Source: Escherichia coli (GTDB lineage: Bacteria; Pseudomonadota; Gammaproteobacteria; Enterobacterales; Enterobacteriaceae). From it: DNA of 64,000 bases. The position numbers are program-made. How positions within the stretch are numbered: position 1 is the stretch's first letter; every line of letters starts with the position of its first letter. The stretch lies in NCBI RefSeq assembly GCF_009931435.1, contig NZ_CP043414.1. One strand, written 5' to 3'. Below, piece by piece: positions 54,301 through 60,300 of the stretch.

Positions 54301-57300
54301 GCGTATCTTTTTACCATAACCCATAAAGGAGATACCCCGATGACCATTACTCCGGCAACCCATGCAATTTCGATAAATCCTGCCACTGGTGAACAACTTT
54401 CTGTGCTGCCGTGGGCTGGCGCTGACGATATAGAAAACGCACTTCAGCTGGCGGCAGCAGGCTTTCGCGACTGGCGCGAGACAAATATAGATTATCGTGC
54501 TGAAAAACTGCGTGATATCGGTAAGGCTCTGCGCGCCCGTAGCGAAGAAATGGCGCAAATGATCACCCGTGAAATGGGCAAACCGATCAACCAGGCGCGT
54601 GCTGAAGTGGCGAAATCGGCGAATTTGTGTGACTGGTATGCAGAACATGGTCCGGCGATGCTGAAGGCGGAACCTACGCTGGTGGAAAATCAGCAGGCGG
54701 TTATTGAGTATCGACCGTTGGGGACGATTCTGGCGATTATGCCGTGGAATTTTCCGTTATGGCAGGTGATGCGTGGCGCGGTGCCCATCATTCTTGCAGG
54801 TAACGGTTACTTACTTAAGCATGCGCCGAATGTGATGGGCTGTGCACAGCTCATTGCTCAGGTGTTTAAAGATGCCGGTATCCCACAAGGCGTATATGGA
54901 TGGCTGAATGCCGACAATGACGGTGTGAGTCAGATGATTAAAGATTCGCGCATTGCTGCAGTCACGGTGACCGGAAGTGTTCGTGCGGGAGCGGCTATTG
55001 GCGCACAGGCTGGAGCGGCACTGAAAAAATGCGTACTGGAACTGGGCGGTTCGGATCCGTTTATTGTGCTTAACGATGCCGATCTGGAACTTGCGGTGAA
55101 AGCGGCGGTAGCCGGACGTTATCAGAATACCGGACAGGTTTGTGCGGCGGCAAAACGCTTTATCATCGAAGAGGGAATTGCTTCGGCATTTACTGAACGT
55201 TTTGTAGCAGCTGCGGCAGCCTTGAAAATGGGCGATCCACGTGATGAAGAGAACGATCTCGGACCCATGGCTCGCTTTGATTTGCGTGATGAGCTACATC
55301 ATCAGGTAGAAAAAACTCTGGCTCAAGGTGCACGTTTGTTACTGGGCGGGGAAAAGCTGGCTGGGGCAGGTAACTACTATCCGCCAACGGTTCTGTCGAA
55401 TGTCACACCAGAAATGACTGCGTTTCGGGAAGAGATGTTTGGCCCCGTTGCGGCAATCACTATTGCAAAGGATGCAGAACATGCGTTGGAACTGGCTAAT
55501 GATAGCGAGTTCGGCCTTTCAGCGACCATTTTCACCACCGACGAAACACAGGCCAGACAGATGGCGGCACGTCTGGAATGCGGTGGGGTGTTTATCAATG
55601 GTTACTGTGCCAGCGACGCGCGAGTCGCCTTTGGTGGCGTGAAGAAGAGTGGCTTTGGTCGTGAGCTTTCCCATTTCGGCTTACACGAATTCTGTAATAT
55701 CCAGACGGTGTGGAAAGACCGGATCTGACGCTACATATTCAGCTCTGATATACTCGCAGGTCTTTTCAGACCTGCGGTCCAGGAGTAGAAAGTGGCAGTC
55801 GCCATGGATAATGCAATTTTAGAAAACATCTTGCGGCAAGTGCGGCCGCTCATTGGTCAGGGTAAAGTCGCGGATTATATTCCGGCGCTGGCGACGGTTG
55901 ATGGTTCCCGGCTGGGCATTGCTATCTGTACCGTTGACGGACAGCTTTTTCAGGCCGGAGACGCACAAGAACGTTTTTCCATTCAGTCTATTTCCAAAGT
56001 GCTGAGTCTCGTTGTCGCCATGCGTCATTACTCCGAAGAGGAAATCTGGCAACGCGTCGGCAAAGATCCGTCTGGATCACCGTTCAATTCTTTAGTGCAA
56101 CTCGAAATGGAGCAGGGTATTCCGCGTAATCCGTTTATTAATGCCGGTGCGCTGGTGGTTTGCGATATGTTGCAAGGGCGATTAAGCGCTCCTCGGCAAC
56201 GTATGCTGGAAGTCGTGCGCGGCTTAAGCGGTGTGTCTGATATTTCCTACGATACGGTGGTAGCGCGTTCCGAATTTGAACACTCCGCGCGAAATGCGGC
56301 TATCGCCTGGCTGATGAAGTCGTTTGGCAATTTCCATCATGACGTGACAACCGTTCTGCAAAACTACTTTCATTACTGCGCTCTGAAAATGAGCTGTATA
56401 GAGCTGGCCCGGACGTTTGTCTTTCTGGCTAATCAGGGGAAAGCTATTCATATTGATGAACCTGTGGTGACGCCAATGCAGGCGCGGCAAATTAACGCAC
56501 TGATGGCGACCAGTGGTATGTACCAGAACGCGGGGGAGTTTGCCTGGCGGGTGGGACTACCGGCAAAATCTGGCGTTGGTGGCGGTATTGTGGCGATTGT
56601 TCCGCATGAAATGGCCATCGCAGTCTGGAGCCCGGAACTGGATGATGCCGGTAACTCGCTTGCGGGAATTGCTGTCCTTGAACAATTGACGAAACAATTA
56701 GGGCGTTCGGTTTATTAATGCAGTCTCTCGATCCACTCTTCGCGCGTTTATCCCGTTCAAAATTTCGCTCTCGCTTTCGTTTGGGTGTGAAAGAGCGTCA
56801 GTATTGTCTGGAGAAAGGCGCGCCAGTCATCGAACAACATGCGGCGGATTTTGTCTCTAAACGTCTTGCTCCGGCATTACCGGCTAACGACGGTAAGCAA
56901 ACCCCCATGCGCGGGCATCCGGTGTTTATCGCTCAGCACGCTACTGCAACCTGTTGTCGCGGTTGTCTGGCTAAGTGGCATAACATTCCGCAGGGTGTTT
57001 CGTTAAGCGAGGAACAACAACGTTATATCGTGTCGGTAATCTATCACTGGTTGGTTATACAGATGAATCAGCCATGATAATTGCGGAAAACGATAAAATA
57101 GCATTCCCAGGATATCTTTATTTGCCGCCGCTGTCAGCGAACATGCTATCCTTTATGAGAATTTACTTATTACGTTGAGATAATTGCCACCCGCAATTGT
57201 ATGGACAGATAATTAATGCATGTACAGCCCATTTCAACTTTCCGTTTGTTCCAGGAAGGTCATCTGCTACGTAATAGCATCGCTATTTTTGTGCTAACCA

Positions 57301-60300
57301 CGCTGTTCTATTTTATTGGTGCAGAGTTACGGCTGGTTCACGAACTTTCTCTTTTCTGGCCGCTGAATGGCGTAATGGCGGGGGTGTTTGCCCGCTATGT
57401 CTGGCTTAATCGACTGCATTACTATGCGATCAGTTATGTGGCAATGCTGGTTTATGATGCCATAACCACCGAATGGGGGCTGGTTTCACTGGCTATCAAT
57501 TTCTCCAATATGATGTTTATTGTTACCGTCGCCTTACTGGTCGCGCGGGATAAGCGTCTGGGGAAAAATAAGTACGAGCCAGTAAGTGCCTTACGGCTAT
57601 TTAATTACTGTCTGATTGCCGCATTATTATGCGCTATTGTCGGGGCGATTGGTTCGGTCAGTATTGATAGTCTGGATTTCTGGCCTTTGCTTGCCGACTG
57701 GTTCAGTGAGCAATTCTCAACGGGCGTGTTGATCGTGCCTTGTATGCTGACGTTGGCAATTCCTGGAGTGCTGCCGCGCTTTAAAGCAGAACAGATGATG
57801 CCCGCTATCGCGCTTATTGTGTCGGTTTTTGCCTCGGTAGTCATTGGCGGAGCGGGGAGTCTGGCGTTCCCGCTGCCTGCATTAATCTGGTGTGCAGTGC
57901 GCTATACGCCGCAGGTAACATGTCTGTTGACCTTTGTCACCGGTGCGGTGGAAATCGTACTGGTGGCAAATTCGGTGATTGATATATCGGTCGGTTCGCC
58001 GTTCTCCATTCCGCAAATGTTCTCCGCACGTCTCGGTATTGCCACGATGGCGATATGCCCAATTATGGTTTCTTTTAGCGTGGCAGCGATCAATTCGCTA
58101 ATGAAGCAAGTTGCGCTGCGAGCCGACTTTGATTTTCTGACTCAGGTTTACTCACGGTCCGGTCTTTATGAGGCGCTGAAAAGTCCATCGCTGAAACAGA
58201 CACAACATCTGACTGTCATGCTGCTTGATATCGACTATTTCAAAAGCATTAACGATAACTATGGACATGAATGTGGCGATAAAGTGTTAAGCGTGTTTGC
58301 CCAGCATATTCAAAAGATTGTCGGTGATAAGGGGCTGGTGGCGCGAATGGGCGGCGAAGAATTTGCTGTTGCAGTGCCCTCGGTGAATCCTGTCGATGGT
58401 CTGCTAATGGCGGAAAAAATCCGTAAAGGCGTTGAACTGCAACCGTTCACCTGGCAACAAAAAACGCTTTATCTCACGGTAAGTATTGGCGTCGGTAGTG
58501 GTTGCGCATCGTACCGAACGCTGACCGATGACTTTAATAAATTGATGGTCGAAGCCGATACATGTCTGTATCGCTCGAAGAAAGATGGGCGCAACCGTAC
58601 CAGCACTATGCGTTACGGTGAGGAAGTTGTCTGACATCTTTATTCATGCAGAGCGATTTTAACGGAATGTGTTCTACCACTTTATTGAGCGAATAAAAGG
58701 CGTAGTTCCTCGATTAAACCATGATCCGCTCCACACTTTTCTCATAAAACTGCTCATTAATCATCAGGAGTTGATCAAAACAGGGGTTCGGCGTATTAAA
58801 GTTTGCTAACCTGTCGTACCAATTCAAACAGGTTGTATGACTAATCAGAAGGGAACCCATTGTGAAAACACTAAATCGTCGCGATTTTCCCGGTGCACAG
58901 TATCCAGAACGTATCATTCAGTTTGGTGAAGGTAACTTCCTGCGCGCCTTTGTTGACTGGCAAATCGATCTCCTGAATGAGCACACCGATCTGAATTCTG
59001 GCGTGGTCGTTGTTCGTCCGATTGAAACTTCATTCCCGCCGTCATTGAGCACGCAGGATGGTCTGTACACCACCATTATCCGTGGTTTGAATGAGAAGGG
59101 GGAGGCGGTCAGCGACGCGCGTCTGATTCGCTCGGTTAATCGTGAAATCAGCGTCTACAGTGAATACGATGAATTCCTGAAACTGGCGCACAACCCGGAA
59201 ATGCGCTTTGTTTTCTCTAACACCACCGAAGCGGGTATCAGCTACCATGCGGGCGATAAATTCGATGACGCGCCAGCGGTAAGTTATCCGGCAAAACTGA
59301 CCCGTCTGCTGTTCGAACGCTTTAGCCATTTCAACGGAGCGCAGGATAAAGGTTGGATCATCATCCCATGTGAACTGATCGACTATAACGGCGATGCACT
59401 GCGTGAACTGGTGCTGCGCTACGCGCAAGAGTGGGCACTACCAGAAGCATTTATTCAATGGCTGGATCAGGCTAACAGCTTCTGTTCTACGCTGGTGGAC
59501 CGTATCGTTACCGGTTATCCGCGTGATGAAGTGGCTAAACTGGAAGAAGAACTGGGTTATCACGATGGTTTCCTCGACACCGCTGAACACTTTTACCTGT
59601 TTGTGATTCAGGGGCCGAAATCCTTAGCGACTGAGCTGCGTCTGGACAAATATCCGCTCAACGTGCTGATTGTTGACGATATTAAACCGTATAAAGAGCG
59701 CAAAGTGGCAATCCTCAACGGTGCACACACGGCGCTGGTGCCGGTGGCGTTCCAGGCAGGGCTGGATACTGTAGGTGAAGCGATGAACGATGCTGAAATT
59801 TGTGCATTCGTTGAAAAAGCCATCTACGAAGAGATTATTCCGGTACTGGATTTGCCTCGTGATGAACTGGAATCTTTCGCCAGTGCAGTCACCGGACGTT
59901 TCCGTAATCCGTACATCAAGCATCAGCTGCTGTCTATCGCGCTTAACGGTATGACCAAGTTCCGCACCCGTATCCTGCCGCAGCTGCTGGCAGGGCAGAA
60001 GGCAAACGGCACACTTCCGGCGCGCCTTACTTTCGCATTAGCGGCATTGATTGCGTTCTATCGCGGTGAGCGTAATGGAGAAACATATCCGGTACAGGAC
60101 GATGCGCACTGGCTGGAACGTTATCAGCAACTCTGGAGCCAGCATCGTGACGGTGTTATCGGCACCCAGGAACTGGTTGCTATTGTATTGGCTGAAAAAG
60201 ACCACTGGGAGCAGGACCTGACGCAAGTGCCTGGTCTGGTCGAGCTGGTTGCTAATGACCTGGATGCGATTCTCGAAAAAGGAATGCGCGAAGCTGTACG

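Follow-up and report, generated by a model that had tools for sequence, protein, structure and literature searches.

Within a 64,000-nt stretch of Escherichia coli DNA (RefSeq assembly GCF_009931435.1, contig NZ_CP043414.1; hereafter the window), we analyzed dgcF (yneF). The original prediction had placed there a long form of the gene, with a multi-transmembrane N terminus ahead of a GGDEF domain, and an open reading frame (ORF) listing of the window returned exactly that: a plus-strand ORF running from ATG to stop and encoding 472 amino acids (aa; Table 1). RefSeq annotation with the Prokaryotic Genome Annotation Pipeline (PGAP) gives an identical 472-aa coding sequence (CDS) in the closest genome (WP_000558450.1, "sensor domain-containing diguanylate cyclase"). 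The exact window protein also occurs in public collections, where it shares a 90%-identity cluster of 9487 members with the common 472-aa E. coli form. The window allele is ~98% identical to this common form, and ~50 complete genomes match it at ≥99% at the DNA level.

Our survey set comprised 5426 complete E. coli genomes, of which 5414 carry the dgcF locus. Its position between yneG and uxaB, together with at least 95% DNA identity to these 5414 genomes, places the window gene in the DgcF/YneF orthologous group. We hold with high confidence that the ORF is the intact, ancestral full-length allele of dgcF, encoding an inner-membrane diguanylate cyclase; this is one joint judgment on the best explanation as a whole, spanning the identity and history of the allele, its architecture, the proposed mechanism, and the deletion in K-12. 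Both the full-length form and the K-12 deletion have already been published, and the finding is correct but ordinary.

Table 1. Features of the dgcF locus, in window coordinates
Feature	Coordinates	Strand	Evidence
dgcF (yneF) CDS, full-length 472-aa allele, stop included	57216..58634	+	ORF listing, PGAP, public collections
Integral-membrane domain, aa 1–304, 10 helices, divergent MASE1-like (predicted)	57216..58127	+	AlphaFold2 model, loop charges, MASE1 profile evidence
GGDEF diguanylate cyclase domain, aa 303–461	58122..58598	+	
A-site motif GGEEF, aa 379–383	58350..58364	+	Direct sequence reading
498-bp segment missing from K-12 and 22% of complete E. coli genomes	57151..57648		blastn; genome counts
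TTG codon, Leu158 of full-length DgcF, annotated start of 315-aa K-12 DgcF	57687..57689	+	
Candidate promoter: ATGAGA, 18-nt spacer, TG-GATAAT extended −10	57155..57184	+	Promoter scan, consensus match only
yneG (DUF4186), upstream neighbor, marks conserved context	56718..57077	+	
uxaB (tagaturonate reductase), downstream neighbor	58862..60313	+	

The K-12 deletion and its annotated start

K-12 is annotated with a shorter product, as the original prediction had it: b1522 of MG1655 spans 948 bp and encodes 315 aa. Two explanations had been offered for the difference, either a misannotated K-12 start or an ancestral full-length allele in the strain at hand. Alignment with blastn shows that the K-12 DNA is not the same. 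Two collinear blocks (window 55645–57150 and 57649–60500; ~96.8% identity) flank a 498-bp segment that K-12 physically lacks, and K-12 does not carry the 472-aa ORF. Of the missing segment, 65 bp lie upstream of the ATG; the other 433 nt are coding sequence (144.3 codons) and cover the ATG together with codons 1–144. It takes with it helices 1–4 and most of helix 5, so that the breakpoint falls mid-helix 5 of a folded 10-helix domain. At the junction, where GCTATC is joined to TTGG, we found no microhomology or repeats (0 bp shared).

The annotated K-12 CDS starts with TTGCTTGCGGAC, and its residue 1 corresponds to residue 158 of the window protein. Upstream of the TTG the K-12 frame stays open for only 29 codons before a stop, and its yneG–dgcF spacer is 111 bp long, where the window has 609 bp up to the corresponding position. 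The explanation that K-12 holds the same DNA and differs only in a misplaced start codon can draw on the weak TTG at which the 315-aa annotation begins, and on Shigella flexneri, where just this situation does hold (a full ORF under a 315-aa annotation); for K-12 itself it is refuted by the blastn blocks, the 29 open codons, and the shortened spacer, and we give it virtually no weight. What survives of the misannotation idea is that the TTG start is an artefact forced by the deletion, and that the 315-aa annotation later spread to S. flexneri.

The S. flexneri records annotate DgcF as 315 aa from the K-12 TTG, yet the full 472-codon ORF is open in them: dgcF of CP024983.1 aligns gap-free with the whole of window 57216–58634 at 97.4% identity. 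The 315-aa Shigella protein reflects a true error in start-codon annotation, taken over from K-12. We also considered whether it might prove the existence of an active truncated form, and rejected this, since Shigella has the full ORF. Where a genome encodes the full protein, a 315-aa annotation carried over from K-12 can misdirect cloning and domain analysis, and studies that relied on the annotation when cloning "dgcF" may have produced a truncated protein.

These observations agree with earlier work. Enteroaggregative E. coli (EAEC) O104:H4 and enterohemorrhagic E. coli (EHEC) O157:H7 were reported to carry an extended yneF, the K-12 gene being "5'-truncated by a deletion" that caused the start codon to be misannotated and explains why no expression is seen in W3110; expression of full-size yneF was weak and mainly RpoS-dependent (Richter et al. 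2014, PMC4287979). The 5' deletion in K-12 was restated by Sarenko et al. (2017, PMC5635695), who found DgcF protein from a chromosomally tagged gene undetectable in K-12. DgcF/YneF of EAEC 55989, O104:H4, and EHEC O157:H7 is encoded by the same gene as in the window: the two agree in 472-aa architecture, genomic context, intact A-site, and absence of an I-site, with no substantial difference. K-12 DgcF shares the C-terminal 315 aa, in which it differs from the window protein by 4 substitutions, but lacks the 498 bp holding the promoter region, the ATG, and helices 1–5, and is unexpressed.

A promoter scan returned the candidate listed in Table 1 and a second promoter-like match at 57184–57213 (likewise a consensus match only), both inside the DNA deleted in K-12. 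Loss of the candidate promoter is consistent with the published silence of the gene in K-12 and with the weak, RpoS-dependent expression of the full-length form. In another strain with a K-12-type allele, PGAP calls dgcF a pseudogene with a "missing N-terminus." K-12 dgcF is thus an unexpressed remnant that has lost its likely promoter, its start codon, and helices 1–5, and that is annotated from an internal TTG.

Allele distribution and ancestry

We found the 498-bp segment in 4196 genomes of the survey. For the deleted state we used a 60-nt probe across the K-12 junction (GCCGCCGCTGTCAGCGAACATGCTATC joined to TTGGTTCGGTCAGTATTGATAGTCTGGATTTCT) with an E-value limit out of reach for half-matches; it matched in 1217 genomes (22%), 1211 of them at ≥99% identity, and every match was chromosomal. 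Because segment and junction together account for 5413 of the 5414 locus-bearing genomes, the locus exists as two alleles, and the deletion looks like a single event.

Carriers of the deletion are not only K-12 laboratory derivatives: many others were isolated from humans, farm animals (pigs, cattle, poultry), a frog and a capybara, and also from soil and wastewater. The deletion has been described as occurring "specifically in E. coli K-12" (PMC5635695); with wild isolates among the carriers, this description is too narrow. We regard the deletion as a common natural polymorphism found in 22% of complete genomes, a small addition that leaves the overall picture unchanged. For dgcF, K-12 is a poor reference with a deletion remnant as its 315-aa product, and the value of the finding lies mainly in this caution.

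The same counts bear on whether the K-12-type remnant, comprising helices 6–10 and the GGDEF domain, might still be expressed at a low level—for instance by read-through from yneG—and keep some cyclase function. Its GGDEF domain and GGEEF motif are intact, with only the 4 substitutions noted above across the shared 315 aa, and the allele persists without further decay in 1217 genomes, 1211 of which match the junction probe at ≥99%. Motility phenotypes of yneF deletion have also been described in some K-12 screens, the deletions being reported to raise motility (studies cited by PMC3484386). These points are opposed by the undetectable tagged protein in K-12 (PMC5635695), a reporter fusion that is silent in W3110 (PMC4287979), the PGAP pseudogene call, and the location of both promoter-like sites in the deleted DNA; we judge residual activity of the remnant quite improbable and retain the reading of an unexpressed gene.

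Long orthologs in other genomes establish the direction of change. Searches with the N-terminal 300 aa recovered orthologs in E. fergusonii (472 aa, 86–87% identity), Citrobacter amalonaticus (478 aa, 83–84%), Enterobacter (479–482 aa, 71–75%), and Lelliottia (482 aa, 72–73%), and 406 relatives, nearly all of 460–500 aa, emerged when 1.84 billion cluster representatives were searched exhaustively. These lengths, 472–482 aa in the outgroup orthologs and almost always 460–500 aa in the relatives, show the long form to be ancestral and that of K-12 to be derived. The converse history, in which the K-12 short form is ancestral and the long form arose by a 498-bp insertion or fusion, is refuted by these orthologs from four outgroup genera, which are 71–87% identical across the N-terminal domain. 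It is further contradicted by the combined membrane-domain and GGDEF architecture of ~400 representative clusters, nearly all 460–500 aa, and by the position of the deletion breakpoint, which cuts a folded 10-helix domain midway through helix 5; nothing was found in favor of this history, and its probability is next to nil. Of the two explanations first proposed, the ancestral full-length allele is the one that holds, both in the DNA missing from K-12 and in the outgroups.

Rarer structures were also seen at the locus. Further alleles occur in NZ_CP136900.1 and NZ_CP075632.1. In one rare-allele genome only query positions 2–1009 match (window 57001–58008, ending within dgcF) and tam lies adjacent, which suggests that the 3' end of dgcF, uxaB, and yneE have been lost; in another, all that is left of the 498-bp segment is its final 96 bp. 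Records labeled plasmid account for five of the matches to the dgcF locus. A handful of E. coli assemblies (5 contigs) encode an in-frame fusion of the DgcF membrane domain (aa 1–303, 98% identical) to the C-terminal kinase domain of HipA. The fusion point lies exactly at the boundary between transmembrane helix 10 and GGDEF, and a fimbrial chaperone–usher operon occupies the place of uxaB; a large deletion joining dgcF to hipA is the likely origin of the fusion.

Domain architecture of full-length DgcF

The C-terminal output domain matches Pfam GGDEF (PF00990) with 140.7 bits (E = 4.5e-41), above the curated cut-off. Its A-site is intact, the GGEEF motif being preceded by KIVGDKGLVARM. An RxxD I-site, sought five residues upstream of the GG(D/E)EF motif in the window protein, is absent; the corresponding residues are GDKG, within KIVGDKGLVARM. 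The protein keeps D338, D340, K343, N346, D347, H351, D355, R377, K455, and R459, catalytic-core residues that occupy near-invariant (≥90% conserved) columns of a 79-sequence family alignment. From these residues the domain is predicted to be catalytically competent and to lack a product-inhibition site, consistent with the published description of full-size YneF as having an intact A-site and no I-site (PMC4287979).

Experimental reports point the same way. Cyclic di-GMP (c-di-GMP) is raised by the Shigella DgcF ortholog but not by its GG→AA mutant; acid resistance, invasion, and plaque size are also affected by the ortholog (PMC11327459). A yneF deletion in CFT073 left the strain with less biofilm on glycerol and lower adherence to bladder cells, and the heterologous cyclase WspR rescued it (PMC3484386). 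Full-length DgcF is among the c-di-GMP synthases that set wild or pathogenic E. coli apart from laboratory strains, and it has been reported to influence biofilm, adherence, acid resistance, and invasion.

Strong hydrophobicity marks the N-terminal ~300 aa, in which a Kyte–Doolittle profile resolves 7 clear transmembrane segments and a further two, weaker regions. An AlphaFold2 model built on the 79-sequence alignment (predicted local distance difference test score 92.4; predicted template modeling score 0.87) places 10 helices between aa 17 and 304, at 17–37, 49–60, 67–84, 89–111, 122–151, 155–179, 191–210, 214–229, 232–251, and 267–304. The multi-transmembrane N terminus of the original prediction is therefore real, and its count of about 8 helices was a slight undercount. 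In the model the tenth helix runs unbroken as a stalk into the GGDEF domain. Lysine and arginine residues cluster in the predicted cytoplasmic loops, satisfying the positive-inside rule for an N-in/C-in topology, and the model shows both termini on the predicted cytoplasmic side. All extracytoplasmic (periplasmic) loops are ≤15 aa. Although members of the family share only 25–40% identity, a set of polar and aromatic intramembrane residues is at least 90% conserved: W48, P49, N51, R60, D81, N98, W162, W225, C226, and R272. An internal 5+5 helix duplication, prompted by the motif pair FWPLNG...ARY and FPLPAL...VRY, was unsupported at the sequence level (hhalign of one half against the other: 0.2% probability, E = 0.37).

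Profile comparisons relate this domain to MASE1 (PF05231), the family represented by the N terminus of DgcE (YegE). The Pfam MASE1 profile is matched by 59 of the 79 homologs, with a best E-value of 3.2e-11 and matches spanning profile positions 4–297 of 299. With hhalign, the DgcF family aligns to aa 1–320 of E. coli DgcE—a genuine MASE1, scoring 128.6 bits to the Pfam profile—at 94.6% probability (E = 6.6e-8, 216 columns), and the N-terminal sub-alignment alone aligns to the DgcE MASE1 at 89.5% (E = 2e-6, 217 columns). Control comparisons with the unrelated membrane proteins YneE, YegH, and WcaD, with part of MdtA, and with shuffled and reversed DgcE all stayed at ≤0.3%.

The architecture fits as well. 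DgcF has an N-terminal polytopic domain of 10 modeled helices directly before a cytoplasmic output domain, as expected for MASE1 (8–10 transmembrane helices), which is likewise a ~300-aa polytopic N-terminal domain directly upstream of a cytoplasmic signaling output; DgcE is described as having ten transmembrane segments, matching the 10 helices modeled in DgcF. The two proteins differ in what follows: DgcF joins its MASE1-like domain directly to GGDEF, whereas DgcE has three PAS domains in between and an added degenerate EAL domain. Among the 79 relatives the domain is partnered with GGDEF in 77 and with histidine-kinase modules in 2; the latter carry HisKA, HATPase_c, and Response_reg instead of GGDEF, one of them also Hpt. 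These two indicate that the domain also serves as a histidine kinase input, as expected for a MASE1-type sensor. On this profile evidence we describe the N-terminal domain of DgcF as a putative divergent MASE1. Richter et al. (2014, PMC4287979) called the same hydrophobic ~300-aa domain unique in E. coli; its MASE1 identity is a small addition for specialists and does not alter the overall picture.

Other comparisons gave less. Sequence searches of the PDB found no chain related to the DgcE MASE1 or the DgcF N terminus. The modeled fold resembles the S-components of energy-coupling factor (ECF) transporters (RibU, ThiT, FolT, BtuM), although DgcF shows neither the sequence family nor the EcfT/EcfA association that would define an ECF S-component. 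Scanned directly against Pfam and NCBIfam, the N-terminal 300 aa gave only a subthreshold SAYSvFN match, which we treated as noise.

Proposed mechanism, alternatives, and local context

The architecture suggests how the full-length protein may work. The MASE1-like domain would sense a signal inside the membrane or close to it, and this signal would reposition the stalk helices of a DgcF homodimer; this shift would control the pairing of the GGDEF domains and hence the condensation of two molecules of guanosine triphosphate (GTP) into c-di-GMP.

The principal alternative is that the N-terminal domain is a mere anchor or dimerization device and that activity is set by the weak, RpoS-dependent expression alone. 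The very short extracytoplasmic loops speak for it. Ten helices, however, far exceed what anchoring needs, and the ≥90% conservation of polar and aromatic intramembrane residues in a family of 25–40% identity speaks against a passive role, as do the homology to MASE1, which is present on histidine kinases as well as cyclases, and the predicted fold similarity to ligand-binding ECF S-components. We consider the anchor-only explanation unlikely and favor a sensory role for the domain.

Several points nevertheless weigh against parts of the account favored here. We infer the proposed mechanism of sensing and of a dimer stalk from the architecture, and with periplasmic loops of ≤15 aa any sensing must be intramembrane. 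The Pfam MASE1 profile does not match full-length DgcF or its aa 1–300 even at E ≤ 10, and the ten closest relatives, scanned singly, all score below the gathering score of 29.8 bits. The assignment to MASE1 is therefore a transitive and profile–profile one, and with direct Pfam membership failing we call the domain MASE1-like rather than a curated member. As for the K-12 allele, the promoter is assigned by consensus match, and the motility phenotypes of yneF deletion in K-12 fit poorly with a wholly silent remnant.

A bolder version of the sensory role would make DgcF a ligand-gated cyclase, in which an S-component-like MASE1 bundle binds a hydrophobic or vitamin-like ligand within the membrane, and would make the 498-bp deletion an adaptive loss of this input in one large lineage. 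We give this idea a low probability. If true, the deletion, fixed in roughly one in five sequenced E. coli with many wild isolates among them, would represent adaptive loss and not a laboratory quirk of K-12.

The surroundings of the gene are conserved: the order glsB–yneG–dgcF–uxaB is common to the window, K-12, and the closest annotated genome. An Rfam scan around dgcF gave no match, and a terminator scan around dgcF gave none, with no terminator-like hairpin between dgcF and uxaB. Compared with K-12, the first ~60 bp past the dgcF stop (window 58640–58700) show clustered mismatches and an indel of 1 bp, and are clearly more diverged than their flanks.

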